A stretch of DNA of 64,000 nt from contig CAVYUK010000004.1 of the NCBI GenBank assembly GCA_963771665.1, positions 63,971-127,970 of the forward strand. Reading direction: 5' to 3'. The DNA is from an uncultured Gammaproteobacteria bacterium (lineage in GTDB: Bacteria > Pseudomonadota > Gammaproteobacteria > Steroidobacterales > Steroidobacteraceae). A program made the position numbers and the translations under genes. Each line of letters starts with the position of its first letter. Positions within the stretch are counted from its first letter, which is position 1. A model generated the notes under the pieces. The model had not been told where the DNA came from. It ran no database searches and was given only the letters and a program-made list of their open reading frames with translations. Shown piece after piece: positions 15,668 to 54,335 of this stretch.

Positions 15668-15769
15668 TGCTTGATTGGGCATTGGCGGCGGCGTATACAG
15701 GGGGCAAATAGGGGCAGCCAAAGCGCGTTGCCCAAAGATGTGGGAGGCCGGGACGCCGTCCCCGTATCC

Positions 15770-18058: not shown

Positions 18059-18061
18059 TGC

Positions 18062-22123: not shown

Positions 22124-22131
22124 TCGCCTGA

Positions 22132-23793
22132 ATGATCGGTGCGCGCACGACCGGGCGCCGTGGCTGGCTGTCAGCGCTATTCATCTGCAATCTCGCCTGT
22201 GCGGCCGCTTTTAGCGCACAGGCTGAGCGCCCTGCGGGCAGCGCGCCATTTGAGCTGCCACCGGTGCCAGAGACCAGGCAAGGTACGGATTCGATCAGTG
22301 GGCAGGTACAAGTTGATCGCATTGCGTTTCGCGGTAATCGTGTGATCCACACCGATGCACTGGCGGCAGTGGCCGCGCCCTTTCTGGGTCGAGAGCTCAG
22401 CGTCGCCGATGTGGAGACGCTGCGGACGGCGCTGACGCACCGTTATACCGATCATGGCTATATCAACTCGGGCGTGGTGCTCGACCCGGAGTCTCCCTAT
22501 CACGACGGCCTGCTGAGTTTTCTGGTTATCGAAGGTCGAATCCACCAGGTGCGCGTTCACGGCCAGAAGCGCCTGCGCGCGGCCTACATAGCGAATCGGA
22601 TGCGACAGAGCGAGGAGGAGACGCTGGATGTCAACCTGCTGCGCGAACGCTTCCAGCGTCTGCTGGATGATCCGCTGTTCGTGCGCGTGAATTCGCGTAT
22701 CGAACCCGGCCCGGACCTCGGCGAGGCCATTCTCGATGTCGATGTCGTCCGCGCGCGTCCCTATACATTGGCGTTTGCGCTCAACAACTATCGTCCGCCT
22801 TCCATCGGCGAGAAAGCATATGACCTGAGCGGGGAAGTACGGAATCTGACCGGCTTCGGCGATGTGGTGAATGCGGATTTCACCGGGCCGCTGAACTTCA
22901 CAGGCGGGGTTGGCTACAGCTTCGGCTGGCAGCTTTCGCTCAATCGCTATGGCACGGCTGTGGCGATTTCGGCGCAGCGAGCGGAGACTGTTGTGACCGA
23001 GGAGCCGCTGTCAGTGCTGGACATTCGCAGCACCATCGAGCGCCAGGAACTGAAACTGACCCAACCGCTGTGGACCTCACTGAGCCAGCAGTTCACCCTT
23101 GGCGCCAGCATTGCGCACGAAGAGAATTCGACCGTGCTGGATGGCACACCGTTCTCATTCCTTCCCGGCTCCAACAACGGCGTTACCCGGGCGATCACCG
23201 AGCGGGTGATTCCGGACTACAGCTTCCGCTCGCCGCAACAGTACTGGGGCGTCCGCGTAACGCTGTTACACGCGTACCTGCTCGATTATCCATCGGGCCC
23301 GGTGTCGTATGCTCTTCCCAATCAGCAGTATTTCCTCTGGACCGGCCAGGTACACAATCTCTGGGAGATTCCAGGCGTGCCGTTCGAATTGGAATCGCGC
23401 GCGACTTTGCAGCGCACCAGTGCGCGCATTTCCGATCTGCACACGCTGGCACTCGGCGGCATCGGCTCGGTACGCGGATTCCGGGAAAATGAGTTGCTGG
23501 CTTCCAATGTCGACAATCTGAATTTCGACTTCCGGTGGCTGGCCTCGCCGGCCGCCCGCGGCGCGGTTCCGGGTCTGACGCTGGGGACCTTTTTTGACTG
23601 GGCGGAGGGCCACGATGTCGGACAGCCTACCGATACGCTTTCGTCGGTCGGCCTGACGACGAGACTGCGCTGGCCGCATCTCCAGGTGGATTTTGCCTAC
23701 GGGTTGCGGCTGATTCATCCGGGCTTTACCGAGCAGGAGCATGGCAGCTGGCAGGACCATGGGATTCATGCGCAGATTCAGACGGTGCTCTGA
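22132..23793 (+). CDS. ShlB/FhaC/HecB-type TpsB outer-membrane transporter
   Basis: Signal peptide, a POTRA-like region (IAFRGNRVIHTDAL..., YTDHGYINSGV), a beta-barrel body and C-terminal GSVRGF. Starts 8 nt after tpsA. Confidence 0.9.
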   Translation: MIGARTTGRRGWLSALFICNLACAAAFSAQAERPAGSAPFELPPVPETRQGTDSISGQVQVDRIAFRGNRVIHTDALAAVAAPFLGRELSVADVETLRTALTHRYTDHGYINSGVVLDPESPYHDGLLSFLVIEGRIHQVRVHGQKRLRAAYIANRMRQSEEETLDVNLLRERFQRLLDDPLFVRVNSRIEPGPDLGEAILDVDVVRARPYTLAFALNNYRPPSIGEKAYDLSGEVRNLTGFGDVVNADFTGPLNFTGGVGYSFGWQLSLNRYGTAVAISAQRAETVVTEEPLSVLDIRSTIERQELKLTQPLWTSLSQQFTLGASIAHEENSTVLDGTPFSFLPGSNNGVTRAITERVIPDYSFRSPQQYWGVRVTLLHAYLLDYPSGPVSYALPNQQYFLWTGQVHNLWEIPGVPFELESRATLQRTSARISDLHTLALGGIGSVRGFRENELLASNVDNLNFDFRWLASPAARGAVPGLTLGTFFDWAEGHDVGQPTDTLSSVGLTTRLRWPHLQVDFAYGLRLIHPGFTEQEHGSWQDHGIHAQIQTVL

Positions 23794-27044: not shown

Positions 27045-27731
27045 CTAGAGCGCGTGGCGAAAGGTCAGGTTGATTCGGCAGCGTCCCAGCGCGGGATGCT
27101 GGCCCTCGGCCAGTGGCTGCACACCATGGAACGCCAGGCGCTGCGCACCGCCCCAGACCACGACATCGGCGTGGAACAGCGGCACGCGCTGCACGGGGTC
27201 GTCGCGCAGCATGCCGCCGAACAGGAACACGGCCGGTAATCCGAGCGAGACGGATACCACGGGGCAGGACATATCGCGCTCGTTGCGATCCTGGTGCAGC
27301 GATAAGCGTGCGCCGGGCTCGTAGCGATTCACCAGGCAGGCATCGGGAGCGAAATGCGCAAAGCCCGCTCGAGCCGCGGCCCTTGCGGCCAGCTCACTCC
27401 AGCGCGCCGGCATCGAGGGCCACGGCCGGCCGCTGCAGGGATCGAGGCTCTGGTAGCGATAGCCGCCGCGATCGGACACCCAGCCTGCACGCCCGCAGTT
27501 GGTCATGGCGACGGACATGCGCTGGCCGCCCGGGGTCTGCATGTGGCGCCAGGGATTGGTGGCGATCAGTGCCTGGACGTCCGCGCACAGCATGGCCGCG
27601 TCGGCAGTTGCAAACCCCGGCAGCACGACAGCCTCCGGCCCGATGCGCTCGAAGGCTTCGCGCGGCAGCAGGTCGCGCGTTGCCAGATCGTGGGCCGGCG
27701 CCCGGGTGGCACTAGAACCGCTCATAAGCAT
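27045..27731 (-). CDS. alkB: alpha-ketoglutarate-dependent DNA dioxygenase AlkB
   Basis: LSLHQDRNE (HxD), RLAFHGV and RINLTFR. The ATG overlaps the upstream stop (TAATG). Confidence 0.9.
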   Translation of the reverse strand: MLMSGSSATRAPAHDLATRDLLPREAFERIGPEAVVLPGFATADAAMLCADVQALIATNPWRHMQTPGGQRMSVAMTNCGRAGWVSDRGGYRYQSLDPCSGRPWPSMPARWSELAARAAARAGFAHFAPDACLVNRYEPGARLSLHQDRNERDMSCPVVSVSLGLPAVFLFGGMLRDDPVQRVPLFHADVVVWGGAQRLAFHGVQPLAEGQHPALGRCRINLTFRHAL

Positions 27732-28456
27732 TACGTTGCATCGTGAAAAATCACTCCCAGCGTATATCGCATGCCCAGCCGGAGACGACTCACCCCATGG
27801 CGCATAGCGACTCGATAAATTCCGCGCGTGCCCTGCATCGGCCGGTGATTCACGGCGAAGATCACCGCGTCCCCCCGGCGCAGCGGCACGACCTCGGCGC
27901 GCGACTGCGCGCGCGGCCGCTGCTCGGTCAGCACGAACTCGCCGCCCTCGAAATCCTTTCCAGGATCAGACAGAAGCACGGTCGCCTGCAGTGGAAACAC
28001 ATGCTCGCCGTAGAGGTCCTGATGCAGGCAGTTGTAGTCGCCGGCTGCGTAACGCAGCAGCAGCGGAGTCGGCTTGCTCTGGCCTGCCGCGTGGCACTCG
28101 TCGAGATACTCCGCCAGCGTCGCGGGGTAACGCGCCGTGGATTTGAGCAAGCCGCTCCAGCGATTGGCGATCGGCGCCAGCGACTCATAGAGCCGCGTGC
28201 GCAGCGCCTGAACCGGTGCCGGCAGAGGGTAGCGGAAGTACTGGTACTCCCCGCGACCGAAGCCGTGACGCTGCATGATCACGCGACTGCGAAACGCCTC
28301 TGCGCTGGCGTAGCCATCGATGAGTTGCGCGCATTGTTCATCGTTCAGTAGTGCCGGGATCACGGCGGCGCCGCGCGCGTCGAGCTCCGCAGCGAACTCC
28401 GCCTCTGGCGCAGATGCCAACGGCGCGGTGACCGATTCGGCGAGCACGGCATTCAC
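27731..28456 (-). CDS. uncharacterised 2OG-Fe(II) oxygenase encoded inside the ada operon
   Basis: HxD in NCLHQDLYG, distal His in VAMRHGVS. GTG start overlaps the ada stop (GTGA). Confidence 0.75.
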   Translation of the reverse strand: MNAVLAESVTAPLASAPEAEFAAELDARGAAVIPALLNDEQCAQLIDGYASAEAFRSRVIMQRHGFGRGEYQYFRYPLPAPVQALRTRLYESLAPIANRWSGLLKSTARYPATLAEYLDECHAAGQSKPTPLLLRYAAGDYNCLHQDLYGEHVFPLQATVLLSDPGKDFEGGEFVLTEQRPRAQSRAEVVPLRRGDAVIFAVNHRPMQGTRGIYRVAMRHGVSRLRLGMRYTLGVIFHDAT

Positions 28457-29508
28457 GAGGCGCGGCCCTCGCGCTCGAGCAGCGCGCGCTTGCGTGCGAC
28501 TCCCCAGTGATAGCCGGAGATCGCGCCGTCGCTGCGAATCACACGATGGCAGGGCACTGCCACGGCAACCGGGTTGGCGGCGATCGCGGCACCCACCGCG
28601 CGGCTGGCCTTGGGAATCCCCAGCCGGCGTGCGATCTCGGCATAGCTGACAGTGGTGCCCGCAGGAACGGTTCGCAGTGCCTGCCAGACCCGCAGCTGAA
28701 AGCTCGTGCCGCGCAGATCCAGCGGCAGATCAAGACCGGCGGCCGGCGCTTCGACGAAGCCAATGACGGTGGCCACCGTGCGCTCGAAGTCGCCGTCGCC
28801 GCCGCGCAGTTGCGCGCGCGGAAAGCGATCCTGCAGGTCGCGCAGCAGCGCCTCGGGTTCATCACCCAGCGTGATTGCGCAGACGCCTCGATCGGTGGCG
28901 GCCACCAGGATGGAGCCGAGCGAGCATTGCGCGACCGCAAACCGGATCTGCTCGCCATTGCCGCCGCTGCGATAGGCACTGGGCACCATGCCGAGCGCGG
29001 CATCGCTCTGCGCATAGAAACGCGCGTTGGAGTTGAAGCCCGCGTCGTACATGGCGGCCGTCACGCTGCCACTCTCAGGCAGCTTGTCGCGCACGCGCTG
29101 TGCGCGCAGTCCCGCGGCGTATCCTTTGGGAGTAAGTCCGGTGACGCGCTTGAACAGCCGGTGGAAATAAAACCGGCTTAAGCGCGCGCCCTGCGCGAGT
29201 TCGGCAAGATTGGGCATCTGCTCGGCCTGCGCGATGCGGCGGCACGCTGCGGCAATCAGCTCGGCCTGGCGCTGTGACGGCGCGGTCGAATCGGGGTGGC
29301 AGCGTTTGCAGGCGCGAAAGCCGGCCCGCTCCGCGGCCGAAGGCTCGGAGAAGAAGCGTACGTTCTCACGCCGAGGCATGCGTGCCGCGCACGAGGGACG
29401 GCAATACACGCCGGTGGTGCGGACGGCGTAAAAGAATTCCCCATCGGCGCTGGGGCTGCGCTGCTGGATGGCGTTCCAGCGATCATCATCGGTGGTCGGG
29501 TGGTTCAT
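28453..29508 (-). CDS. ada: bifunctional Ada: methylphosphotriester/O6-methylguanine methyltransferase and AraC-type regulator
   Basis: ORF 28453..29598. AGGAG lies 6 nt before ATG 29508. Zn-Cys N-domain FFYAVRTTGVYCRPSCAAR, AraC HTH, C-terminal VPCHRVI active site. Confidence 0.9.
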   Translation of the reverse strand: MNHPTTDDDRWNAIQQRSPSADGEFFYAVRTTGVYCRPSCAARMPRRENVRFFSEPSAAERAGFRACKRCHPDSTAPSQRQAELIAAACRRIAQAEQMPNLAELAQGARLSRFYFHRLFKRVTGLTPKGYAAGLRAQRVRDKLPESGSVTAAMYDAGFNSNARFYAQSDAALGMVPSAYRSGGNGEQIRFAVAQCSLGSILVAATDRGVCAITLGDEPEALLRDLQDRFPRAQLRGGDGDFERTVATVIGFVEAPAAGLDLPLDLRGTSFQLRVWQALRTVPAGTTVSYAEIARRLGIPKASRAVGAAIAANPVAVAVPCHRVIRSDGAISGYHWGVARKRALLEREGRAS

Positions 29509-29818
29509 GGTGGACTCCTGGGCAGCCGCGCTGCGTCTGGGGCGCAGATTCGGCGAGCGGCGCCTGGCGCGCACTCCAGCTGTTGCGGTTGAATTCAAGC
29601 TGCTCAGGGTGTCTTACAGATGCGTTTCCGATGTCTGGGAGGCGCGCATTTTATAGGTTTTGATCGCTGCCGGAACGCTGCAATACTGCGGCGCTGCCGC
29701 AGACGGAATCGCAAGTGATTCCAATCAGTTGGATGATGGTCGGCAGATGAGGCCGGAGAAAGTCATGAACTCCGATGCATATGGCCGGGCCCGAATAATT
29801 GCGCCTGGCGTTGGCTTT

Positions 29819-29919
29819 TTTGTTGCCTAGGCAACAAATCGGTCCGGGAAGCCAGAAGTAGTTGCCTAGGCATCAATTCGGCGGCAAAGCCATAAGTAGT
29901 TGCCTAGGCAACAAATCGG
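29819..29919. repeat. three 38-39-bp-spaced copies of a palindromic motif (core TGCCTAGGCA)
   Basis: Copy 1 at 29819-29838 is a perfect 20-bp palindrome, TTTGTTGCCTAGGCAACAAA. Copy 2 core is 29861-29881 (GTTGCCTAGGCATCAATTCGG). Copy 3 is 29899-29919 (GTTGCCTAGGCAACAAATCGG). Copies 2 and 3 also share the upstream AAGTA. Confidence 0.85.
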
Positions 29920-30004
29920 AGTCGGAGCAGCATTTATTCGCGGGTATAGCGGTCGTCCGTCGCGAACCGGACGCCTAAACTGCAACGCAGCAGGAGTGAT
30001 GAGA

Positions 30005-30871: not shown

Positions 30872-31789
30872 TTACGTCTGGCGTCCGAATCGATAGGAGT
30901 TGGCCGGGCGATATAACAGCGGGTTCCCGGCGTCGAGATGCCACATCTCATCACGCATTCGTTGGCGCTCTGCGTTCGGGATGGCGCCGAAGCCTCTGTG
31001 CGGAGTGCATGTGAGTTCGCCGAAGTAAACCTCGCCCTCGACCGTATAAAGGTCGACCCGGACGAAATCAAAATCCGCGGAGAGGTCTCTGGCCACCTGC
31101 ACCATGACTTCAAAATTCGCCGGCTTCAGATGTGGCGCCAGCTCCTGCTCAGGAATATCGCATTCGAGAACTGTCCAGTCCTTCCGGAAGGCGGCGCTCT
31201 TCCCAGCCGGCGTCATAATCGAGAAATTGTAGTCAAACCCGCCGCGCGCGTTATAGCAAAAGAAGCTGTAATCCCAAGGCACATCACCGTGCGGCCCGCT
31301 CAACAGCTTTTCGATCACGATTTTCGGAGGGATGAAACTGTAGTGCCTTTCTCCGGAGATCCAACCGAAACGCCGTTTGCAGAGCTTGTTGAATCGCCGA
31401 ATTGTCTTATCGATATCGAGCGTGCGCTTGTCGTAGACGATCTGGTGCCACTTGCAGCCATGATTGGCTTTGATAATAAATTGATCAGGCAGGTTATCGA
31501 ATGTTGATCTGTCCAATCGGTCGTAAACGCCAAGCAGCGGAATGAGGTGTTTGTCGCCGACCTTGGCGGCGACGTAGTTCCTGACTCGATACTTGTCTGC
31601 GACCAGGGCGTAGAAGGCGTGATTGCCGTACAGCTTCCTGAATTGCACCTTCTCCTGGTACGTCTTTGGATTCTCGAAATCACCTGCGTAGCCGAGGCCC
31701 CTCATGAACTGCAAGCTGATCAGCTGCCGCTGCGCATTGAAGATTAGCCATTCGCTCAGTCGCCTTAGCATTTGAGTCGCCTCTTGCAA
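30872..31789 (-). CDS. TupA-like ATP-grasp amidoligase
   Basis: Blocks FIIKANHGCKWH and FVRVDLYTVEGEVYFGELTCTPHRG. Lower GC than the flanks. Its stop abuts the GST stop with zero spacer. Confidence 0.7.
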   Translation of the reverse strand: MQEATQMLRRLSEWLIFNAQRQLISLQFMRGLGYAGDFENPKTYQEKVQFRKLYGNHAFYALVADKYRVRNYVAAKVGDKHLIPLLGVYDRLDRSTFDNLPDQFIIKANHGCKWHQIVYDKRTLDIDKTIRRFNKLCKRRFGWISGERHYSFIPPKIVIEKLLSGPHGDVPWDYSFFCYNARGGFDYNFSIMTPAGKSAAFRKDWTVLECDIPEQELAPHLKPANFEVMVQVARDLSADFDFVRVDLYTVEGEVYFGELTCTPHRGFGAIPNAERQRMRDEMWHLDAGNPLLYRPANSYRFGRQT

Positions 31790-32156
31790 GTCATTGTAGT
31801 TTGCCGAAGGCGGGCATCAAGATGCGCTGCCGACCGTGCCTTGCCTCGTTATGTTCAACGGCTGACCTCACAAGACAAAAACGATGTCAGCCAGGTCGGG
31901 AGTATGACGACGAGACTCATTATGTAAACCGCGGCGGAGCACCGAGTGATTGGAACCAGAGCGAGCTTGTCCACGCCGCAGTCGGTTACGCAGATGCCGC
32001 GGCATTCGCATCATGAGTCCGACAGTCCAGGGATCTCCACACCGGTCCGGCAATGATTCTTGTGAGACAATTACGAACTCAAAGAACCGGAACTTCGCTT
32101 CGGGTGGTTCCCTCGCCCCGGGAAGTTTCGCGGGCAAATATAAATTAGCGATCACC

Positions 32157-32912
32157 ATGGAAGCGTTTTTCTTCGGGCCAAGTAAAGAGCAGCTTTTCGG
32201 TACCTATCATCCGCCGCTTAGCGGCGATGGTGAAGTACTGACCGTCATCTGCCCGCCTCTCTTTTCAGAGTCCGCGCGTACGCAGAGTGCGCTTCGCAAA
32301 TTGGCGATTTCCATTGCGGAAACCGGTAGGCACGTACTCAGATTCGATTATCGAGGCACCGGAGATTCATTTGGCGACCTCGAGGACTACAACGTCTCTG
32401 ATTGGATCGAGGACGTTGCACTGGCCGTCGAGGAAGGCCGCGAGGTCTCCGATTGCAGCGAAGTGCAAATCCTTGGTGTTCGGGCTGGCGCGTTACTGGC
32501 GTGCAATTCGGTGGGAGCCGCCAGCGATATTCAGAGGCTGGTGTTGTGGGACCCCATCGCTGATGGCGCCGCGTACATCGAGGCAATCCGGCGCGCCCAA
32601 GTGGAAAATCTCAAGAGTGAGTTCAGGTCGATGAGTCGGGTTGAGCGTGGAGAGGGGATACGGGATATCGGAGGTTGGCGTGTATCCGAGGGGATGCTGG
32701 AAGAGTTTCGAGCGCTCGACTCCAGCGCGTATTTGCGTATTCCAGAAAATAAGCTGCAAGTCGTGAGCACCGCTGCAGAAGACGGCTTTTCGCCGCGAGG
32801 AGTGGCCTCCGAGGTGCTGCCGTATCCATGTAACTGGGAGCACGTTAGAGAGAATGTGATTAATCCCCAGCCGGTTTTGGAGCGTCTGTTCGCGTGTCTG
32901 ACGAAATCCTGA
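32157..32912 (+). CDS. alpha/beta-hydrolase-fold protein 1 (resembles exosortase-A-associated hydrolase pair member)
   Basis: ORF 31950..32912, start taken at MEAFFFGPSKEQLFG. VLRFDYRGTGDS block. The nucleophile-elbow position reads GVRAG (32475-32489). Confidence 0.65.
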   Translation: MEAFFFGPSKEQLFGTYHPPLSGDGEVLTVICPPLFSESARTQSALRKLAISIAETGRHVLRFDYRGTGDSFGDLEDYNVSDWIEDVALAVEEGREVSDCSEVQILGVRAGALLACNSVGAASDIQRLVLWDPIADGAAYIEAIRRAQVENLKSEFRSMSRVERGEGIRDIGGWRVSEGMLEEFRALDSSAYLRIPENKLQVVSTAAEDGFSPRGVASEVLPYPCNWEHVRENVINPQPVLERLFACLTKS

Positions 32913-33748
32913 CAGAAGAAATACTCCAGTTTGGAGACAATGCACGGCTGTTCGGGATTTTGACCTTGCCGAGCCTGCCGTTGCGCCAAACCGCAAAGCT
33001 GCCTGTGTTTGTATTTTTGAGTTGCGGAGCGCTGCATCGAGTCGGTCCGCAACGATTGTATGTCCGACTGGCCAGGACCTTGGCGCCAATGGGATTCAGC
33101 TCATTGCGCGTCGACTTGAGCGGTAGAGGCGATAGTTCGGGAAAACCCGAATTGAGAAACGAGCAATCGCTGCTGGAGGATTACAAAGAGATAGTGAGCA
33201 TTCTGCAAGCACGCCTTGGACAGTCGCAATTCGTGTTATGTGGGCTTTGCTCCGGTGCCGATAATGCCCTGATGCTTGCGCACGCCGATCAGCGAATCAT
33301 CGGGTTACTCCTGATGGACCCGACATTCCATCCAGCGGATGGTTTCAGAGTACGCAGGTTCTTCCAAAGATTGAGGAACCCCGCGCGATATCTGGATCCC
33401 CTGAGCTACATTTCCTGGCGAAGACTAAAGGCGGAGCTGCTGATAGAACCGCCGCTGATGATCGGAGATCCTCCTACGCGGGAGCGAATTCGGGCAGCGT
33501 TTCAGGCTATCTGCGGACGCCAAGGGCGAGCGCTGACAGTATTCACAAGTGCGGCGTTGAAGCAGGGCTACACCCATTTGGGACAACTGGCCCAGACGAT
33601 CTCTGTGCCCGGGTACGAGCAATTCTGTATGGAGAGATTCTTTTCGGCCGCAGGGCACACATTCGACCTGGAGCACCATCGGCGCCGGCTCCTGGACGAA
33701 GTGAAGCTGTGGTCAGCTGGATTCCTACAGCCGACAGAAATCGCGTAG
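32894..33748 (+). CDS. alpha/beta-hydrolase-fold protein 2 (Cys at nucleophile elbow)
   Basis: GTG start overlaps the upstream gene by 19 nt. FLSCGALHRVGPQRLYVRLAR..LRVDLSGRGDS. Elbow reads GLCSG (33242-33256). Confidence 0.65.
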   Translation: MSDEILTEEILQFGDNARLFGILTLPSLPLRQTAKLPVFVFLSCGALHRVGPQRLYVRLARTLAPMGFSSLRVDLSGRGDSSGKPELRNEQSLLEDYKEIVSILQARLGQSQFVLCGLCSGADNALMLAHADQRIIGLLLMDPTFHPADGFRVRRFFQRLRNPARYLDPLSYISWRRLKAELLIEPPLMIGDPPTRERIRAAFQAICGRQGRALTVFTSAALKQGYTHLGQLAQTISVPGYEQFCMERFFSAAGHTFDLEHHRRRLLDEVKLWSAGFLQPTEIA

Positions 33749-33837
33749 TGGCATTGACGGCGCTACTCGACTTTTGCCGACCCTTCGGCCTGAGCCGGTA
33801 CCGAGTCGAACAGATCAAAAAGAAGGCATAACATTCC

Positions 33838-42279
<8,442 letters not shown>

Positions 42280-42319
42280 GGCGCGAGTAAAGCTCGAGTA
42301 ACGCTATAGTCCCGATTCC

Positions 42320-43330
42320 ATGAAAGCAGTCATCCGGGCCATCGAATACCACCTTCCGGAAGCCGTGCTTCAAAGCCAGGATCTGGCTCGCGAATTCCCA
42401 GACTGGCCGGTCGCCAAAATCGAAAGCAAGACCGGGATTTCGCAGCGTCATATCGCAGCGGCCGGTGAATGCTCGTCGGACCTGGGGATCGCCGCAGCGA
42501 AGAAGCTCTTCGCGTCAGGAGCGGCTGCGGCGGCAGAGATCGATTTCCTGCTCTTCTGTACACAAAGTCCCGACTATTTCCTGCCCACCACGGCGTGCCT
42601 GGTGCAGACGGCGCTTGATATCCCCACTCATGCCGGAGCGCTCGACTTCAATCTCGGCTGCTCAGGGTTTGTGTACGGACTGAGCCTGGCGAAGGGGTTG
42701 ATCGAAACCGCGCAGGCGGCGAATGTGCTGCTCATCACGGCCGAGACCTACAGCAAGTTCATCCATCCTCGCGACGGCAGCGTGCGGACGATTTTCGGCG
42801 ATGGAGCGGCCGCGGTCCTGCTGCGTGCCGAAGCCCGCGACGATGAACCTTTGGGACCCTTCGTATTCGGCACCGACGGACGCGGAGCGAAGGATCTAAT
42901 CGTGCCCGGCGGCGGCATGCGCGCGCGAGCCTCAGGCTGCGACGCGGTGGAAGATGACCAGGGCTACTGGCGGGGAGCCGATAATCTGTACATGAACGGT
43001 CCCGAGGTGTTCAATTTCACCCTGAACGAAGTGCCGGCTTCGACGGAGGCGCTGCTGCGTCGCACGAACACCACGCTGGCTGACTACGACCTGTTCATTT
43101 TTCACCAGGCGAATCGCCACATGCTGAACCATCTGCGCAAAATCGTCGGAATTCCGGAAGAGCGCTTTTATATCGGCATGGAACGTTGTGGCAACACCGT
43201 CTCCTCGACGATTCCGATCGCACTTCACAATGCGGCAAGCGAGGGCCGCTTGAGTGCGGGGGACCGCGTCATGGTGGTGGGGTTCGGTGTTGGCTATTCC
43301 TGGTGCGCGGCGGCGCTCACATGGCAGTAG
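42320..43330 (+). CDS. KASIII / FabH-like 3-oxoacyl-ACP synthase III family enzyme
   Basis: Catalytic triad contexts NLGCSGFVYGL (Cys), IFHQANRHML (His) and CGNTVSSTIP (Asn). Confidence 0.9.
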   Translation: MKAVIRAIEYHLPEAVLQSQDLAREFPDWPVAKIESKTGISQRHIAAAGECSSDLGIAAAKKLFASGAAAAAEIDFLLFCTQSPDYFLPTTACLVQTALDIPTHAGALDFNLGCSGFVYGLSLAKGLIETAQAANVLLITAETYSKFIHPRDGSVRTIFGDGAAAVLLRAEARDDEPLGPFVFGTDGRGAKDLIVPGGGMRARASGCDAVEDDQGYWRGADNLYMNGPEVFNFTLNEVPASTEALLRRTNTTLADYDLFIFHQANRHMLNHLRKIVGIPEERFYIGMERCGNTVSSTIPIALHNAASEGRLSAGDRVMVVGFGVGYSWCAAALTWQ

Positions 43331-43584
43331 CTCTGAATCCGATCCTGCTGGCCCAGATGCAGGAGATCTTCCGCGACGTCCTGGATCGGCCAGATCTGGT
43401 CATTACGGCTGAGTCGAATGACGAAACCGTAGAGGGCTGGGATTCCTTGATACACGTAGTGCTGGCCGTCGCGATCACCCGCCGCTACAAAGTGAAATTT
43501 GCGCCGGGCGAGATGAAGAGGCTGAGGAACGTCGGCGATTTGGTGCGGGAGCTCGAGTCGAAGCTGAAGTTGAACGCAAGCTAG
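43321..43584 (+). CDS. free-standing acyl/peptidyl carrier protein
   Basis: Inside ORF 43186..43584. ATG 43321 overlaps the KASIII stop by 10 nt. 87 aa with EGWDSLIHV (Ser codon 43444-43446). Confidence 0.8.
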   Translation: MAVALNPILLAQMQEIFRDVLDRPDLVITAESNDETVEGWDSLIHVVLAVAITRRYKVKFAPGEMKRLRNVGDLVRELESKLKLNAS

Positions 43585-43587
43585 GGC

Positions 43588-45150
43588 CTAAAACTGGAAA
43601 TAGAGAAAGCGGCTTCCCGCATCCAGCATCAGGATCGCAAGGCAGAAAACCGCCGTCAAGCCCAGGCTCCATGCCATCACCGGACGCCAGGTCAGGTTCG
43701 GCAGGACCAGGCTGGGCCAGCGGGCACGATCCGCCGAAGCACGCGAGAAGATTTCCTGGGTGTTGGGGAACGACCAGACGGCGAAGAAGAGCAATGCCAG
43801 GCTGAGCACGCAGCCAGCTCCGCTTCTTAGGAAGAACGAATAGTGCGGAATCGCATCCACATATTCGCTCATTGAGAACCAGGAAGCCGTGCCATGCAGG
43901 CCCACCATGCTGCCCAGAATGTACATGGCGTCGTGGACATCCGCGGACCGGAAGAATACCAGGCCGACCAGAAATCCGAGGAAGGTGACCACCACCGACA
44001 GCGGCGCCGGTATGACATCGTGGAAACGCGAGCCCTGGGGCGTGAGGTAGCGCCACGCGTGATTGAGTGTCAGAAAGATCCCCTGCAATACGCCGAAAAT
44101 CAGGAACTGGAAGCCGGCGCCGTGCCACACGCCGGCGATAGTCATGGTCCACATTAGCGGAAAGAAGACCATGCTGAGAAATCCCCCTGGAGTCGCGGCC
44201 GCCTTGCGGCTGATTTTTTTCCCGCGGGCGAGCCGTGACGCGCATACCCAGTTGACGGCGGGCGTGTACAGGTACTCGTTCAGGTAGCGCGAGAGGGTCA
44301 TGTGCCATCGCTGCCACAACTCTATATACGACCGGGCCTTGTAGGGGGAGTTGAAATTGACGGGGAGGTCGATAGAGAACATGCGAGCCAGCGCCACTGC
44401 CATGTCCGAATATCCGGAGAAGTCGAAGTAGAGCTGCATCGCGTAGGCGAGAGCTCCGAGCCAAGCGGTGAATAAACCGGCGCTATACGGATGCTGGTAG
44501 AGAAAGTCCGCGAGCGGTGCGATGCGGTCTGCAATCAGCACTTTCTTGGCGAGGCCCAGGATGAACCACGACAGTCCGATGGCCACGTCGTGGGCGCGCG
44601 GACCGTGAATCCGGCCGGCTTCGAGTTGCGGCAGGAGATCGCGCGGGTGGATTAATGGACCGGCGATGAGATGAGGGAAGAACGTGACGAAAACCGAATA
44701 GGGCAGCAGGCCCTCCCGTTTGGCGACCTGCTGGCGCAGATCAACCAGGTAGGCAATCTGGGTAAAGGTGAAGAAAGAAATCCCCAGCGGAAGGATCACC
44801 TCCGCGAAGCCGTGCTGAAGCAGGCCGCGGCCGTACAGAAAGTTGAGGAACGGAAACAGGTATTTGTAGTACACCAGCAGCGCAAGATTGGCTGTAATCG
44901 CGGCAAACAAACATCGGTTTTGCCAAACTTCCGGCTTACCTTCCCCGAGTCCGTAGGCAAAGCAGAAGTTCATCAGTATGGATGCCGCCAGCAGGCCCAA
45001 ATAGACTGGGTTCCAGTACGCATAGAACACCAGCGAAACGGCAGCGAGCCATCCCAGCATCGCGGTGCGGCCGAAACGGCTTAGCAGATGGTAGCCGCCC
45101 AATGCGCACGGCAGGAATAAGAAAATGAAGATGGTCGAGGAGAAGAGCAA
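43588..45150 (-). CDS. MBOAT family O-acyltransferase (AlgI/DltB-like)
   Basis: Multi-TM 520 aa. Conserved His blocks QRWHMTLSRYLNEYLY and AGVWHGAGF. Its stop is 3 nt from the ACP stop (convergent). Confidence 0.9.
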   Translation of the reverse strand: MLFSSTIFIFLFLPCALGGYHLLSRFGRTAMLGWLAAVSLVFYAYWNPVYLGLLAASILMNFCFAYGLGEGKPEVWQNRCLFAAITANLALLVYYKYLFPFLNFLYGRGLLQHGFAEVILPLGISFFTFTQIAYLVDLRQQVAKREGLLPYSVFVTFFPHLIAGPLIHPRDLLPQLEAGRIHGPRAHDVAIGLSWFILGLAKKVLIADRIAPLADFLYQHPYSAGLFTAWLGALAYAMQLYFDFSGYSDMAVALARMFSIDLPVNFNSPYKARSYIELWQRWHMTLSRYLNEYLYTPAVNWVCASRLARGKKISRKAAATPGGFLSMVFFPLMWTMTIAGVWHGAGFQFLIFGVLQGIFLTLNHAWRYLTPQGSRFHDVIPAPLSVVVTFLGFLVGLVFFRSADVHDAMYILGSMVGLHGTASWFSMSEYVDAIPHYSFFLRSGAGCVLSLALLFFAVWSFPNTQEIFSRASADRARWPSLVLPNLTWRPVMAWSLGLTAVFCLAILMLDAGSRFLYFQF

Positions 45151-45164
45151 TGCTGAGGCTCGTC

Positions 45165-46166
45165 TTAATCTGGACTGTTCTCTAGCGTACGAATCTGGCT
45201 GGCGATCCGCTCGGACAACAGCACGGAGCCCGCCGTCGTGGTGTGCCGCCCACCCTCAAGAAAGTCGTTCACCGGCAACGTGTCGACGCGGTTGTCGATG
45301 ACGCCTGACAGTTTCCCGAGGAAAAAGGCAAGGTTCGGATCGCAGGCGGGGATCGGCGTGGCGTCTACAAGAACCGTGGTTCCATCCCGGCCATACTTCG
45401 AGCGCAGCAATTCAATCCAGTTCTTATCGGGAGCGCTGGCGTTACTCACGTAGGAACAGCTGGACAGAGCACGCGTGTCGTCGGGCACCATCCGGCTCTC
45501 GGTCCTGTTTCGCAGGTATTGCATCTCGGGCGACAACGGCTTGGCCACCGCGCTCTCCGACGGCTTCGTTACCGCCTTCTCAGCTGCAATGCGTAGACCG
45601 CGACAGCTCCAGTCGAGGAACTCGCCCGGATGCCGCAGCAACAGCTTGGCCGCGCGGCCGGGCTGACGCAGAGTGTAAGTAATGGCTTCGAATAAATGGA
45701 TGTTGGTGTTGCCGTATTGCTGGTCCGGATTCAAATCCTCCGGGGCGTAGTTGAAAATCAGGTACCGGGGTCGCCGATTGCGTTCCAGGTACTGATCTAC
45801 AAGCATGGTGCCTTCCAGCATCGTGATGCCCATGTATTCGGCGATATTGCAGGTGCTCAGGCCAGTGAGTTGCCGGACCCGGTCCGGATCGATTCCCAGC
45901 ATGGCGGTCGAGTCGCCGTAAATCACCACCTGGCAATTCGTGTCGCTAAGGGTGGCGCCGTAAGCCACCGTGACCAGGTAGCTGATGCCGGAATGCCGGG
46001 CGAACCACGCTGTTGGAACAATCAAAACCGCGGCGACGGGAAGCAGCAGAGGAAGCAGAATCAGCGGAAGCAAATACCGCGCGTAATGCTGCGTTGGCGA
46101 ACCGTCTGCTCCGCCGTCATCCCCGCCGGAAATCGTCTCTGCATCGGCGGGGGAAAGCTCTGACAC
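45165..46166 (-). CDS. membrane-anchored GDS-motif protein, putative DltD/SGNH-like partner of the MBOAT
   Basis: One N-terminal TM helix (LLPLILLPLLLPVAAVLIV), then VVIYGDSTAMLG. 14 nt upstream of the MBOAT on the same strand. The family call is tentative. Confidence 0.5.
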   Translation of the reverse strand: MSELSPADAETISGGDDGGADGSPTQHYARYLLPLILLPLLLPVAAVLIVPTAWFARHSGISYLVTVAYGATLSDTNCQVVIYGDSTAMLGIDPDRVRQLTGLSTCNIAEYMGITMLEGTMLVDQYLERNRRPRYLIFNYAPEDLNPDQQYGNTNIHLFEAITYTLRQPGRAAKLLLRHPGEFLDWSCRGLRIAAEKAVTKPSESAVAKPLSPEMQYLRNRTESRMVPDDTRALSSCSYVSNASAPDKNWIELLRSKYGRDGTTVLVDATPIPACDPNLAFFLGKLSGVIDNRVDTLPVNDFLEGGRHTTTAGSVLLSERIASQIRTLENSPD

Positions 46167-46193
46167 ACCGCGATTATAGCAAGCGCAGCCAAT

Positions 46194-47177
46194 TTGCTAT
46201 TCTCGATGTCTTCGGAACATGGAGACTTGGTGCAGATTATTGTCCGGCAGAGCGACGGTCTCGGAAATCAGCTTTTTCAATACGCGGCGGGGCGTTACCT
46301 GGCGAATCGATACAACGCGGATTTACGGATCGCCTTCCAGCCGCCGCGTTATACAACTGTGCGCGGAACTCGCAGGCCCAACCTGATCAATAAATTCGCG
46401 ATCGCTGCGAAAGCCGGTACTGCAACTGTGCTTGACCGACTGGTCACGTCCAACAAAGCGCCATTCGCTCTACCGGGGCGACTCATTCGAGCGCTCCGTA
46501 AAATTCAAGTGATAAGGCAACACATCGTGCAAGGCGTCGCGCCCGTGCAGTATCTGGACTACTACCCGACCGGTCACCTGAACGAGAGTTTCCCGCCGAA
46601 TTATGAATTCAAGATCGCGCCGGACGCCCGGGCGATCTACCTGGTGGGATATTGGCAGTCGTACTTGATGGTGCAGGAGGTCGAGGCCGAGCTTCGGGGT
46701 GAATTCAGCCTGGTGGAGCCACCGAGCAAGAGAACGCTGGAAATTGCTGCGGCTATCCGCGCAGCATCAAACCCGGTATCCGTGCACGTGCGACGCGGTG
46801 ATTATCGGGAGGAATTTGGCGAAAATGCCGTGCTACCGATTGCCTACTACGACCGGGCCGCACGCTTCATGATGAATCGCCTGGGCGATGCAGCCTGCTT
46901 TGTCTTTTCGGACGAGGTTGCCTTCGCCAAAGAATGGACGCGAGGCAAGGCGCGTATGGTGGTCGTCGATCACAACGACGCGGACTCCGCCCACGAGGAC
47001 CTTTGGCTCATGTCGCTGTGCCGGCATCACATCATTGCCAACAGCTCGTTTTCCTGGTGGGGCGCCTGGCTGAATCCAAGCAACAGCAAGCTCGTGGTTG
47101 CTCCTTCGAATTGGCTGGGATTTGAAACCAGGCGCACAGCCATAGCATCTGCCGACTGGACCTTGATAGACGCCTGA
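46194..47177 (+). CDS. glycosyltransferase family 11 (alpha-1,2-fucosyltransferase-like)
   Basis: GLGNQLFQYA, SVHVRRGDY and IIANSSFSWWGAWLN. Confidence 0.85.
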   Translation: MLFSMSSEHGDLVQIIVRQSDGLGNQLFQYAAGRYLANRYNADLRIAFQPPRYTTVRGTRRPNLINKFAIAAKAGTATVLDRLVTSNKAPFALPGRLIRALRKIQVIRQHIVQGVAPVQYLDYYPTGHLNESFPPNYEFKIAPDARAIYLVGYWQSYLMVQEVEAELRGEFSLVEPPSKRTLEIAAAIRAASNPVSVHVRRGDYREEFGENAVLPIAYYDRAARFMMNRLGDAACFVFSDEVAFAKEWTRGKARMVVVDHNDADSAHEDLWLMSLCRHHIIANSSFSWWGAWLNPSNSKLVVAPSNWLGFETRRTAIASADWTLIDA

Positions 47178-47263: not shown

Positions 47264-47701
47264 TCACTTTAAAATGAGTTCACGGATATATTCAGTGCCT
47301 AGAACTTTTCTGTATTCAGTCCGGGCCACCCTGGCCTTGTTCTGAACCTCGGTGCTCCCGATTACTTTCTTCGCCACTTCTTCTTCTTCGACCCCTTTAT
47401 CCAAAGCCGCCATGTTTTTATAAGTGATCCAGAGATATATATTGGGCTGATCCGGGGATTTTGGATTGAGCCTGAAGACCTTGTAATCGATGATTAGCCC
47501 AGCTTTCTTCGTGGCTTCCATGGTGGGCTTCCACGTCGAATTTAGCCAATCGATGTACTCTTCAAAATGTCCGTACTCAACGTGTATGTAGGCCACCTCA
47601 GTGACTGGACCCTCAGTGAACTGGCGCTGGTCCTGAGCACGTGCATTAAGCGAAAGTGAGGAAGCCGCGAGACACGCGGATAAGGTAATTGTCTTAAGCA
47701 T
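47264..47701 (-). CDS. hypothetical secreted protein
   Basis: 145 aa with a signal peptide (MLKTITLSACLAASSLSLNARA). AT-rich relative to the window. No family recognised. Confidence 0.5.
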   Translation of the reverse strand: MLKTITLSACLAASSLSLNARAQDQRQFTEGPVTEVAYIHVEYGHFEEYIDWLNSTWKPTMEATKKAGLIIDYKVFRLNPKSPDQPNIYLWITYKNMAALDKGVEEEEVAKKVIGSTEVQNKARVARTEYRKVLGTEYIRELILK

Positions 47702-47728: not shown

Positions 47729-48450
47729 CTACTCGGCTAACACCCGGATTAAACTGACCTGAGTTACGCAATACTCTGATGCGCGATAGAGTGTCCTGGC
47801 CACGCGGAATCCGAAGGTGGTGGTCCGATAGGACGCGGGGATCCCGCGGCGGTTAGCCGAGCGGACGACGCTGAGATCAGCGTCCCAGGAGCCGCCACGC
47901 ACAACGCGCCGGCCACAGTCTCCAGACTGCCACGCCGTGCCATCAGTAGGCGCGCCGCTATAGTTGGTGTTCCAGCAATCTTGATTCCAATCCATGACGT
48001 TTCCGAGCATATCGTAGAGGCCGAATTGGTTCGGCGGAAAACTTCCAACTGGCGACGTGAATGCATACCCGTCGCGGCACGCTCGATTCACCCCGCTATC
48101 GCCACGATGCTGCTCGCTATAATCCAGATCACCAACATTGCTGTAGCGGCAGAACTCCGCCGGATTATCGCTGTGGTAACGCGCCGTCGTCGTCCCCGCG
48201 CGCGCCGCGTATTCCCACTCGGGCTCCGTTGGCAAGCGGTAGACGTGTCTGGCCGCTTTGTCTCCGCCACAAACTGAGCGTATTCATCACGCATCACGTC
48301 AAATTTGGCAATTGCGAGCTTGTGTTTGATCGTGATCAGATGCCGCCGTATCGAGCGTCCGCGAAGTTGATTGGGTAGATTCTCGCGCGCTTCTTCCCCC
48401 GCCGGTGCCCCCATAGTGAACCTGCCCCGCTGCACTACCATCCTTCCCTG
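47729..48450 (-). pseudogene. degraded formylglycine-generating-enzyme (SUMF1/FGE-sulfatase) family gene
   Basis: The C-terminal part is intact in ORF 47729..48235 (YRLPTEPEWEYAARAG...GNVMDW...RGGSW...FGFRVAR). The N-terminal part (GRFTMGAP...FDVMRDEYAQFVAETKRP) is in another frame (ORF 48088..48528). About 50 aa of expected sequence between the two parts is missing. Confidence 0.6.
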
Positions 48451-52957: not shown

Positions 52958-54247
52958 GTCCTACCGGGCACATAGGTAACACTTCTTCCGAGCACATGGG
53001 TAACACTTTTCGGCATTTGCGGGAGACGCAACATGCCTTGGAAGGAGTTATCCAAGATGGACGAGAGGATGCGTTTCGTGGCTCGGTTGATGGAGGGAGA
53101 GAAGATGGCGGTGTTGTGCCGTGAGTTCGATATCTCCCGCAAAACCGGCTACAAGATCTTCAACCGCTACAAGCACGCGGGGATCGAAGGGCTCACCGAC
53201 CGCAGCCGCCGCCCGTACCGACACGCCAACCGGCTGCCCTTTCAGATTGAGCAGCTGATCTTGCAGATCAAGGAGAAGCGCTCGAGCTGGGGAGCGCAGA
53301 AGATCCGGGACAAGATCAAGCTGCTCCACACCAAGATCCACCTTCCCGCCATCAGCACCGTGCATGCGGTCCTGTACCGCAACGGCCTGGTGGGCGATGA
53401 GGGTCGTCCGCGCTACAAGGCTCAGGGCACGACCCTATCCCAGGCTAACCGACCCAACGATCTGTGGTGCGCCGATTACAAGGGCGAGTTCATGCTCGCC
53501 GATAAACGGTATTGCTACCCGCTGACCATCACCGACTTCGCCAGTCGCTACCTGCTCTGCTGTGACGCCCTGGGCAGCACCCAGGAGATGTTCGCTTTTA
53601 CCGTGTTTGAGCGGGCTTTTAAGGACTTCGGACTGCCTCTGGCTATCCGTACCGACAACGGCATCCCCTTCGCCAGCCGCAGTGCCTTCTTCGGCCTCTC
53701 CAAGCTCTCAGTGTGGTGGTTGCGCCTCGGGATCGGCATCGAGCGCATCAAGCCCGGCAATCCGCAACAGAACGGCCGCCACGAGCGCATGCATCTGACC
53801 CTCAAGAAGGAAGCTACCAAGCCGGCGGCCAACAATCTGTTGCAGCAGCAAGCCAAGTTCGATCACTTCATCGAGTACTACAACCGAGAACGCCCGCACC
53901 AGGCCCTGGAGGGTCGCTGCCCCGCTCAGCTGTATCGACCGTCCCGGCGACCCTACACCGGCTTGAGTGATCTGGAATATCCCTTCCACGATCGCACCAT
54001 CACGGTGACCACCTGTGGGCGCATCTGTTTCGGACGGCGTAAGATCAATCTAAGCCAGGTCTTCGCCGGACAGAATGTCGGCATCAAAGAAGTGGCTGAA
54101 AAGATCTGGCTGGTCAGCTTTATGCACTACGACCTGGGGTTCTTTGATCACGAGGTAGGTCGCGTCGAGTGTGCCCCTAACCCGTTCGGCGCCAAACTGT
54201 TACCCATGTCTCCGGAATGAAATGGGTACCATGTGCCCGGTTAGGAC
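52958..54247 (+). mobile_element. IS481-family insertion sequence, complete with terminal inverted repeats
   Basis: IRL is GTCCTACCGGGCACATAGGTAAC (52958->). The reverse complement of the right end is GTCCTAACCGGGCACATGGTACC (54247<-). A subterminal second copy of CACATGGGTAACA lies at each end. No flanking direct repeat seen. Confidence 0.85.
53033..54220 (+). CDS. IS481-family DDE transposase
   Basis: N-terminal HTH ([18 protein letters not shown]). rve core WCADYKG (D), IRTDNGIPF (D) and [10 protein letters not shown] (E). Confidence 0.9.
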
Positions 54248-54258
54248 CTCAAAAGAAA

Positions 54259-54335
54259 TGGCGCGCCCGACTGGATTCGAACCAGTGACCCCTGCCTTCG
54301 GAGGGCAGTACTCTATCCAGCTGAGCTACGGGCGC
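54259..54335 (-). tRNA. tRNA-Arg (anticodon CCG)
   Basis: The minus strand reads GCGCCCGTAGCTCAGCTGGATAGAGTACTGCCCTCCGAAGGCAGGGGTCACTGGTTCGAATCCAGTCGGGCGCGCCA. It has a 7-bp acceptor stem, anticodon stem CTGCC/GGCAG, loop CTCCGAA, T-arm GGTTCGAATCC and an encoded CCA. Confidence 0.95.

Follow-up and report, generated by a model that had tools for sequence, protein, structure and literature searches.

The subject of this study is a 16-kb locus (30872-47177) in a 64,000-nt stretch of the genome of an uncultured gammaproteobacterium of the Steroidobacteraceae (contig CAVYUK010000004.1); this whole stretch is referred to as the window, and all coordinates are positions within it. The locus brings together a nonribosomal peptide synthetase (NRPS) that carries no thioesterase (TE), a pair of alpha/beta-hydrolases, a free-standing acyl carrier protein (ACP) and an MBOAT (membrane-bound O-acyltransferase). 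In the original prediction, which was made from the sequence alone, these genes were envisaged as a single pathway analogous to the Dlt system, in which the NRPS takes the place of the single adenylating enzyme and its peptide is handed to the MBOAT for attachment to the cell envelope. Here, we compare the locus with its relatives and suggest that it is probably, if with no great assurance, a mosaic of separately inherited glycan-tailoring modules in an operon-like array rather than one pathway. All nine open reading frames (ORFs) of the prediction were recovered at their coordinates, and their family assignments, which are based on the window's ORF list and on scans with Pfam and NCBIfam profiles, hold:

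30872-31789, minus strand: TupA-like ATP-grasp amidoligase (ATPgrasp_TupA, PF14305, E 3e-32)
32157-32912, plus strand: abh1, alpha/beta-hydrolase fold of the hydr2_PEP type (best match TIGR03101)
32894-33748, plus strand: abh2, alpha/beta-hydrolase of the hydr1_PEP type (best match TIGR03100)
33838-42279, plus strand: NRPS of 2813 aa, with the adenylation (A), thiolation (T) and condensation (C) domains in the order A-T-C-A-T-C-A-T (three AMP-binding, two Condensation and three PP-binding domains in Pfam)
42320-43330, plus strand: KASIII/FabH-type ketosynthase (NF006829, 270 bits against a cut-off of 249)
43321-43584, plus strand: free-standing ACP of 87 aa (PF00550; GWDSL, with Ser42)
43588-45150, minus strand: AlgI/PatA-type MBOAT (PF03062), convergent to KASIII-ACP
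45165-46166, minus strand: membrane-anchored partner of 333 aa, divergent SGNH-like (GDS motif and fold search; no family match)
46194-47177, plus strand: GT11 protein (fucosyltransferase family; PF01531, E 1.7e-22), divergent from the partner gene

The ATP-grasp gene is divergent from the hydrolase/NRPS operon, from which it is separated by an intergenic region of 367 bp. Within the operon the genes are tightly packed: abh1 and abh2 overlap by 19 nt (the abh1 start at 32157 agrees with the N-termini of its homologues), 40 bp separate the stop of the NRPS gene from the start of the KASIII gene, and the latter overlaps the ACP gene by 10 nt. Two blocks are distinguished here. Module A (32157-42279) contains the hydrolase pair and the NRPS; module B (42320-46166) contains the KASIII, ACP, MBOAT and partner genes and looks like a self-contained, carrier-protein-dependent O-acylation system of the MBOAT/SGNH type.

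The two closest relatives of the window's MBOAT, both 90% identical to it, are encoded on short metagenome contigs, L084 and L085, whose alignment with the window (88-89% nucleotide identity) is confined to 42303-46219 and so to the KASIII, ACP, MBOAT and partner genes. In L084 the homology ends 17 bp before the KASIII start; upstream there are about 490 bp of non-coding sequence and a divergent cytosine/purine permease gene, and the contig contains no NRPS. Since this NRPS-less locus nonetheless keeps a KASIII that is 93% identical to the window's, the job of this enzyme would be independent of the NRPS. The L085 contig is cut within the KASIII gene, so that its upstream side is uninformative; it alone covers the GT11 side, where its homology with the window reaches no further than 46219, with an aldo-keto reductase gene in the position of the GT11 gene. 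Because neither the ATP-grasp nor the GT11 gene was seen in the two relatives extending that far (L085 alone for the GT11 side), these two genes are assignable to neither module. As the permease gene of L084 and the aldo-keto reductase gene of L085 are both absent from the window, a simple insertion scenario cannot be reconstructed, and a search for repeats found only the internal ones of the NRPS modules, with none bracketing module A or B.

Seven loci, the window included, encode an MBOAT with at least 62% identity to the window's (the others being L084, L085, L081 from Granulicella tundricola, L083, L169 and L171), and in every one of them an orthologous ACP adjoins the MBOAT. What varies is the loader beside this pair of genes. 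It is a KASIII in three of the seven and an FkbH-like HAD protein of 600 aa in the remaining four (L081, L083, L169 and L171; MBOAT identity 62-66%), which retain both the partner and the ACP. The identity of the ACP follows that of the MBOAT, even across the change of loader: 85-86% with 89-90% in L084 and L085, and 53-58% with 62-66% in the FkbH cassettes. No NRPS is present within 7-10 kb of these four FkbH-type cassettes, whose neighbors are MaoC plus a short-chain dehydrogenase/reductase (SDR), or a glyoxalase/VOC protein, or an AT3 acyltransferase. The cassettes of this type, including one on a Rhodobacteraceae plasmid (L183), are located as follows on their own contigs:

L081: 10001-14777
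L083: 8981-15068
L169: 7347-12174
L171: 6001-12163
L183: 3742-9529

They combine an ACP and an FkbH-like HAD protein with an MBOAT whose end is FxYxxF and, next to it, a protein of 330-360 aa in the position of the partner, and they suggest the export of a glycerate- or lactate-derived acyl group. In the FkbH loci of Acidobacteriaceae the protein in this position resembles the window's partner (in L083 two partner paralogues flank the MBOAT). On the plasmid, where the array reads ACP-FkbH-MBOAT-hypothetical-VOC, the 358-aa hypothetical protein has no detectable similarity to it. At lower MBOAT identity, in L172 (59%) and L170 (53%), the partner is kept and there is no ACP. Ralstonia sp. RRA.1 (L182, NZ_CP146092.1, 469-9312) has an array of an NfrA-like outer-membrane protein, an AlgF-like protein, two ALGX-domain proteins, an MBOAT, a 78-aa PP-binding protein and a stand-alone AMP-binding enzyme; it amounts to an alginate-acetylation-type set with a DltA/DltC-like loader in a Gram-negative bacterium. 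The homologues of the window's MBOAT belong to the Acidobacteriaceae (Granulicella, Tunturiibacter, Acidicapsa), and the plasmid and Ralstonia arrays thus extend the occurrence of carrier-protein-fed AlgI-type MBOATs beyond this family and its phylum. To judge from all these gene neighborhoods, the conserved unit is ACP, MBOAT and partner, with an exchangeable loader, and it has an NRPS as neighbor in the window only.

The KASIII, located between the NRPS and the MBOAT, offers a neutral anchor for such comparisons. No MBOAT, and no NRPS related to the window's, occurs in the 160 loci nearest to it (56-76% identity) among GTDB genomes and JGI metagenomes. The five relatives that were checked (58-76% identical) all follow an SDR gene, two of them with an ACP; the two nearest (70-76%) follow an SDR gene, and L010, the only KASIII locus scanned with Pfam, has an LbH acyltransferase too. 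As its relatives carry such SDR/ACP arrays, the window's KASIII is taken to derive from a widespread, ACP-linked family of short-chain condensing enzymes; its Cys-His-Asn triad is intact (C114/H262/N292), as had been predicted. The (LbH acyltransferase)-ACP-SDR-KASIII arrays of Acidobacteriota and other phyla, found in full in L010, resemble module B in having a KASIII of 58-76% identity and a dedicated ACP. However, the window has neither the SDR nor the LbH transferase, its transferase being a membrane MBOAT, and its ACP is 25-33% identical to those of the LbH-SDR arrays as against 53-58% to those of the FkbH-type MBOAT cassettes.

The MBOAT has the catalytic histidine (His343, in VWHGAG) and a C-terminal end, FLYFQF, that conforms to the motif FxYxxF (Tyr517), as do all 120 of the homologues listed. 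In PatA and DltX the tyrosine of this acyl-shuttle motif is acylated, and the acyl group then passes to the SGNH partner (PMC12148441). The window's own partner protein has an N-terminal membrane helix (23-48) and belongs to a small family, with 372 representatives among 1.84 billion. Across 76 homologues G84-D85-S86, H308 and two cysteines are invariant (numbering of the full protein; that of alignment A1 is one lower). The protein has no sequence match in Pfam, NCBIfam or PDB, a profile built from the 76 homologues likewise found nothing in Pfam or among PDB sequences, and there is no match to PF16822 (AlgJ/AlgX) in the partner or in any of these 76 family members. Its AlphaFold (AF2) model (pLDDT 92) gave top matches in Foldseek that all have the SGNH fold (platelet-activating factor acetylhydrolase, probability 0.99), with DltD (6o93) at rank 14 (E 0.03, TMq 0.33). 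On the strength of this model we read the partner as a divergent SGNH-like transferase.

In the scheme that we propose for module B, the KASIII would build or load a short acyl group on its dedicated ACP, most likely acetoacetyl from malonyl-ACP and acetyl-CoA, since acetoacetyl-ACP is the textbook product of the KASIII reaction. By analogy with DltB/DltX and PatA, the MBOAT would move this group from the phosphopantetheine arm of the ACP across the membrane onto its own Tyr517, and the SGNH-like partner would then pass it through Ser86 to an extracytoplasmic polymer. In the sister lineages the same ACP-MBOAT-partner core would be fed by an FkbH-like loader.

Such a system is like Dlt in that the genes for an MBOAT and an extracytoplasmic Ser-His partner adjoin that for a small carrier protein of the phosphopantetheinylated type, and in the route to be expected, from carrier thioester via acyl-Tyr and then acyl-Ser to the polymer (PMC12148441). 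It differs from Dlt in several respects. The conserved cassette has a KASIII or an FkbH-like protein instead of a DltA-type loader, with NRPS A domains adjacent in the window only; it has no DltX microprotein, the FxYxxF motif being fused to the MBOAT as in PatA and AlgI; and although DltB (TIGR04091) is the best NCBIfam match of the MBOAT, the score of 148 bits is under the equivalog cut-off of 375, and the partner has no sequence match to DltD. Moreover, the host is Gram-negative and, unlike the hosts of Dlt, has no teichoic acid. The likeness to PatA/PatB, AlgI/AlgJ/AlgF/AlgX and WssH/WssI lies in the MBOAT with C-terminal FxYxxF and in the separate, membrane-anchored periplasmic transferase. 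Those systems use acetyl-CoA and are stated to have no carrier protein, and in general the MBOAT/SGNH pathways other than Dlt are described as working without a carrier protein and with acyl-CoA as the donor (PMC12148441, published in 2025), whereas the window cassette keeps an ACP and a loader, which would supply its donor. In addition, the window partner has no ALGX domain, unlike the proteins of the Ralstonia array, and there is no AlgF. By its sequence features the cassette is thus a hybrid that shares the carrier protein with Dlt and the fused shuttle motif with PatA/AlgI. Of the Dlt-like logic originally proposed, the small carrier protein that would feed an MBOAT and an extracytoplasmic partner is retained, the ACP being kept in all seven loci, while the NRPS in the place of DltA is not.

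In module A, the core motifs of the A, T and C domains are intact in all modules of the NRPS (three ten-residue specificity codes, two HHxxxD motifs, and three GGHSL motifs with the carrier serines S573, S1673 and S2770). Pfam finds neither a TE (PF00975) nor a reductase in this protein, which stops 44 residues past the T3 serine and hence has, as had been noted, no terminal TE or reductase for release in cis, nor a terminal C domain. The Stachelhaus codes read from the core motifs are DFWNIGMVHK, DVWHISLVDK and DILQLGMVWK, which we take to be the canonical codes for Thr (exact), Ser and Gly (the latter two with conservative changes), in support of the Thr-Ser-Gly product that had been envisaged. 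Both C domains have an N-terminal HHxxxxxGD besides the HHxxxD, and this extra motif reportedly marks dual epimerization/condensation (E/C) domains. Because of these codes and the dual E/C type of the C domains, the T3-bound product is predicted to be D-Thr-D-Ser-Gly. The best named relatives of the C-A-T unit are the Pseudomonas synthetases of the arthrofactin/syringopeptin type (44-48% identity), whose C domains share the extra HHxxxxxGD; the window NRPS differs from them in having only three modules, no TE and no starter C domain, so that no lipid tail is expected.

Relatives of the NRPS were found with the last 1074 aa of the protein as the query. Those nearest to its last module, P0121 (79% identity) and P0122 (64-67%; encoded on contig L168), both terminate at the same point past the T domain. 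As they end identically, the TE-less state is inherited and not a truncation caused by the neighboring cassette. TE-bearing relatives also exist: L086 (A-T-C-A-T-C-A-T-TE, 63-76% identical) has a phosphopantetheinyl transferase (PPTase) gene upstream and an MFS transporter, and L087, with the same or a similar module order and a TE, has a PPTase gene upstream too. Neither of these two has the hydrolase pair or an MBOAT, and no MBOAT or ACP was found near the NRPS relative in L086, L087 or L168. The window, unlike L086, L087 and the Variovorax locus described below, has no PPTase.

The best match of abh1 is TIGR03101 (hydrolase 2, exosortase A system-associated; 93 bits, cut-off 203) and that of abh2 is TIGR03100 (hydrolase 1 of the same system; 65 bits, cut-off 168); every scanned homologue of the pair is likewise under the curated hydr1/hydr2 cut-offs, and the pairing is correct. 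When aligned with PDB sequences, abh1 has Arg109 (GVRAG) and abh2 has Cys119 (GLCSG) at the position of the nucleophilic serine, and the latter also has His255. Among nine homologous sequences from Acidobacteria, Alpha- and Betaproteobacteria, the abh1-type elbow is G-x-R-x-G in seven and G-x-G-x-G in two, with a serine in none, and the abh2-type elbow G-x-C-[SA]-[GA] and the downstream histidine are invariant (9/9). Hence abh1 is likely a non-catalytic partner subunit, and abh2 is proposed to be the enzyme that removes the product from the NRPS. Fusions of the two proteins, in which the N-terminal half is the abh1-like one, occur in Azospirillum, Mycetohabitans, Burkholderia gladioli, Roseateles, Shinella and Caballeronia.

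In L168 the stop of the TE-less NRPS gene (67% identity) overlaps the beginning of the next gene, an abh1 homologue (48%), after which comes an abh2 homologue (44%). The pair is thus located downstream of the NRPS in L168 and upstream of it in the window, with the same internal order, and since the linkage survives this rearrangement, NRPS and hydrolase pair are considered to form a functional unit. In Variovorax paradoxus VAI-C (L175, CP063167.1, 10526-43113), a TE-less NRPS/PKS heads a long, same-strand exopolysaccharide (EPS) cluster. Its assembly line (A-T-KS-AT-T-aminotransferase, then C-A-T-C-T, without a TE; KS, ketosynthase; AT, acyltransferase) is followed on the same strand by a PPTase and by abh1-like and abh2-like proteins (35-39% identical), and then by Wza, Wzc, a sugar transferase, a GDP-fucose synthase, glycosyltransferases and a flippase; GDP-mannose genes are present too. 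Because the hydrolase pair co-occurs with TE-less lines both in L168 and in Variovorax, it better explains the absence of a TE from the window NRPS than does the MBOAT route.

Twelve gene contexts of the pair were inspected in total, and these included hits from a tblastn search of plasmids and chromids (48 records). An adenylating enzyme plus a carrier protein is present in seven of them and polysaccharide genes are present in six to eight; the adenylating enzyme is part of an NRPS in L168 and Variovorax. Azospirillum (L173, 2341-9927), Mycetohabitans (L176, 1983-9981) and Methylobacterium (L187, 1657-8513) share a conserved array of an ACP (none was detected in that of Methylobacterium), an acyl-CoA-dehydrogenase-like protein, an amino acid-[ACP] ligase, DUF1839 and a fused hydr2/hydr1, preceded in the two annotated records by a GH2 gene. 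These fused-hydrolase arrays connect orphan carrier-protein ligases, which resemble aminoacyl-tRNA synthetases, to the hydr2/hydr1 hydrolase. Within EPS clusters, Roseateles has the pair with an ACP and an adenylate-forming enzyme, and Shinella has the fused pair with an ACP, ligase_PEP_1, dCO2ase_PEP1 and ATPgrasp_ST; the EPS clusters of B. gladioli, Cupriavidus CH34 and Microbulbifer contain the pair without a visible carrier system, and the contexts in Caballeronia and Rhizobium are uninformative. For B. cenocepacia, the published list of the Bcam1330-1341 EPS cluster likewise includes a TIGR03100 protein (PMC3584217). The open-access literature that was searched contained nothing on the function of hydr1/hydr2 or on a link between NRPS and EPS. 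From these contexts we infer that the pair takes products off carrier-protein thioesters and that the acceptor is usually polysaccharide-related; the cysteine nucleophile of abh2 suggests a transfer via an acyl-thioenzyme.

The known system that module A most recalls is the exosortase A-associated set, which comprises an acyl-CoA ligase (TIGR03098), a pyridoxal-phosphate-type (PLP) decarboxylase (TIGR03099), the two hydrolases (TIGR03100/TIGR03101) and an ACP. In the window as in this set, a hydr2-like/hydr1-like pair adjoins an adenylating enzyme and a carrier domain; the differences are that a three-module NRPS replaces the ligase and ACP and that the scores are under the curated cut-offs. 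No TIGR03098, TIGR03099 or exosortase/PEP-CTERM protein was found among the larger window ORFs scanned, and the ATP-grasp protein of the window is of the TupA type, as against ATPgrasp_ST in the Shinella set.

For module A we therefore propose a scheme in which the TE-less NRPS would assemble a (D-)Thr-(D-)Ser-Gly thioester that would be released in trans by abh1/abh2, a nucleophile-less subunit together with a Cys-His hydrolase. The abh2 enzyme would take the peptide as an acyl-S-Cys intermediate and then either transfer it to an acceptor or hydrolyze it; the acceptor, judged from the contexts of the pair elsewhere, would most likely be a polysaccharide precursor. The NRPS would thus stand for the AMP-ligase plus ACP of the exosortase-A-type ligase/ACP/hydr1/hydr2 set and not for DltA. 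The idea that a multi-module NRPS occupies the slot of a single adenylating enzyme may accordingly be kept, with the set to which it is assigned changed. Similarly, the suggestion that a peptide is placed on a glycan gains from the recurrence of the hydrolase pair in EPS clusters with adenylating enzymes and carriers, and loses the MBOAT route by which this had been envisaged; it is plausible that the hydrolase pair would join the peptide to a glycan.

An explanation that makes fewer demands is that module A simply yields a free, soluble peptide, with abh2 as a trans-acting TE, no role in glycans, and EPS neighborhoods that are incidental. The TE-bearing relatives L086 and L087 are ordinary small NRPS clusters with a normal TE and a PPTase (and, in L086, an MFS transporter), the window has no EPS assembly genes, and abh1 and abh2, whose sequences were read by eye, have no recognizable signal peptide. 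Nonetheless, an invariant cysteine nucleophile and an obligatory nucleophile-less subunit would be unusual for a plain hydrolase. Furthermore, in Variovorax, B. gladioli, Shinella, Roseateles and Cupriavidus the pair is part of an EPS operon, and NCBIfam places it with the EPS-linked exosortase A system. We consider this explanation rather unlikely, although it deserves serious attention.

Considerably less probable is the arrangement of the original prediction, in which the NRPS replaces DltA and its T3-bound tripeptide is passed to the MBOAT and partner, either directly or via KASIII/ACP, and esterified onto an envelope polymer. It would account for the missing TE and for the position of NRPS, KASIII and ACP on one strand with such short intervals, and the loaders of these MBOATs are indeed interchangeable, one of them, in Ralstonia, being an A domain with a carrier protein. 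However, the comparison of neighborhoods by which the prediction proposed to check itself, that is, whether homologues of the NRPS occur beside MBOAT or ACP genes, had an outcome against a hand-off when it was run on related loci. The four-gene cassette exists without an NRPS in L084, the FkbH-type cassettes have none nearby, the NRPS relatives L086, L087 and L168 have no MBOAT or ACP, and the TE-less state is common to relatives that carry the hydrolase pair instead. Furthermore, none of the enzyme classes present is known to take a peptidyl group from a T domain and place it on a free ACP. That the NRPS physically hands its product to the MBOAT is thus not supported by this comparison of sequences. 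Scarcely credible, finally, is the proposal that KASIII and ACP serve the NRPS, for example in ketide extension or capping, and that the MBOAT and its partner, unrelated to these, carry out O-acetylation from acetyl-CoA: some hybrid pathways do employ FabH-like enzymes and the more distant MBOAT-partner pairs of L170 and L172 have no ACP, but L084 keeps KASIII-ACP with MBOAT-partner in the absence of an NRPS, the identity of the ACP follows that of the MBOAT even where the loader changes, and the first domain of the NRPS is an A domain, with no starter C domain before it.

The interpretation of the locus as a mosaic of two modules must itself be weighed against a number of observations. The samples are small and the comparison contigs short: the region upstream of the KASIII is visible in one close relative only (L084), and a TE-less assembly line is linked to the hydrolase pair in only two other loci (L168 and Variovorax). 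Downstream of the gene for P0121, the closest relative of the NRPS, lie DAO and OCD-type genes, and the end of its contig cuts a further gene after 336 codons, which is the length of the KASIII. For module B, the SGNH match of the partner is weak (best E in Foldseek 1e-3, with TM-scores of 0.3-0.4), the donation of an acyl group by the ACP to the MBOAT is deduced from gene adjacency only, and the acyl product of the KASIII is a guess, as the KASIII relatives that were checked adjoin an SDR whereas the window cassette has none. For module A, abh1 and abh2 score under the NCBIfam cut-offs for a family of the "hypoth_equivalog" grade, known bioinformatically only, and the window has no Wzx, Wzy or Wza genes. 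Moreover, modules A and B are probably co-transcribed here and could interact, because they lie on the same strand, 40 bp apart, with no terminator-like site called between them; a scan for promoters and terminators over 30.5-48.6 kb did not exceed the counts in shuffled sequence and called nothing at the NRPS/KASIII junction.

The two modules, together with the ATP-grasp and GT11 enzymes, may decorate the same polymer. A bolder form of this idea, which we put forward only tentatively, is that TE-less assembly lines and the two-part hydrolase constitute a general machinery for covalently attaching nonribosomal peptides to exopolysaccharides or lipid-linked precursors, of which the window and Variovorax would be examples, and that in the window the same polymer is also acylated by the KASIII product via the ACP-dependent MBOAT, the modules having been joined in one transcription unit.

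The flanks of the locus are unrelated housekeeping or accessory genes. The stretch from 31 to 54 kb has a somewhat lower GC content than its flanks, and of the drop in GC that the original prediction placed at about 45.1 kb there remains a dip, which is only shallow (to 0.55 at 44.65-44.95 kb). Upstream, at 27045-29598 on the minus strand, an adaptive-response operon contains the gene for an Ada-type methyltransferase/AraC regulator and then two genes for 2-oxoglutarate (2OG)-Fe(II) oxygenases (PF09859 Oxygenase-NA and the AlkB-like 2OG-FeII_Oxy_2). Between the regulator gene (28453-29598, minus strand) and a GST-like ORF, at 29819-29924, a 21-nt unit with the perfect palindrome TTTGTTGCCTAGGCAACAAA is present three times at a spacing of 38-39 bp; these repeats look like operator sites. 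Further upstream, the row at 15671-23793 comprises a CHAT-domain protease with TPR, a 1353-aa exoprotein of the two-partner-secretion type (TPS domain), a ShlB/FhaC-type transporter and an OmpA-family protein. Downstream of the GT11 gene lie an ORF for a 145-aa protein that begins like a signal peptide and matches no family (47264-47701) and, on the minus strand (47729-48235), a 168-aa ORF with only the C-terminal half of an FGE-sulfatase domain (profile positions 112-255), which is probably a gene remnant and beyond which a LysR gene is located. An IS481-family transposase gene (53033-54220, plus strand) adjoins a tRNA-Arg(CCG) gene (54259-54335, minus strand) and marks the end of a low-GC stretch of about 23 kb; a search for a copy of the 3'-end of this tRNA gene, such as would mark an island boundary, found none.

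The locus is best described as an ACP-fed MBOAT-SGNH system of the PatA/AlgI type together with an NRPS-fed version of the hydr1/hydr2 set. If the modules are merely neighbors and the peptide is simply released, it would be an ordinary accessory island. In the open-access literature that was searched, MBOAT cassettes fed by an ACP, FkbH or KASIII are nowhere described, and the consistent tie of an AlgI/PatA-type MBOAT with fused shuttle motif to a dedicated ACP stands against the statement that such pathways, Dlt excepted, have no carrier protein (PMC12148441). The variety of the loaders (KASIII, FkbH-like protein and the A domain of Ralstonia) points to envelope O-acylations that are wider in range and chemically more varied than acetylation and D-alanylation. 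For the hydr1/hydr2 proteins, whose "exosortase-associated" annotation has so far been unexplained, the invariant cysteine, the nucleophile-less partner and the link to TE-less NRPS/PKS lines and EPS operons lead us to propose a role in the removal of products from carrier-protein thioesters during the decoration of polysaccharides. If this is true, the hydrolase pair would also mark peptide-glycan conjugates that might escape genome-mining tools.

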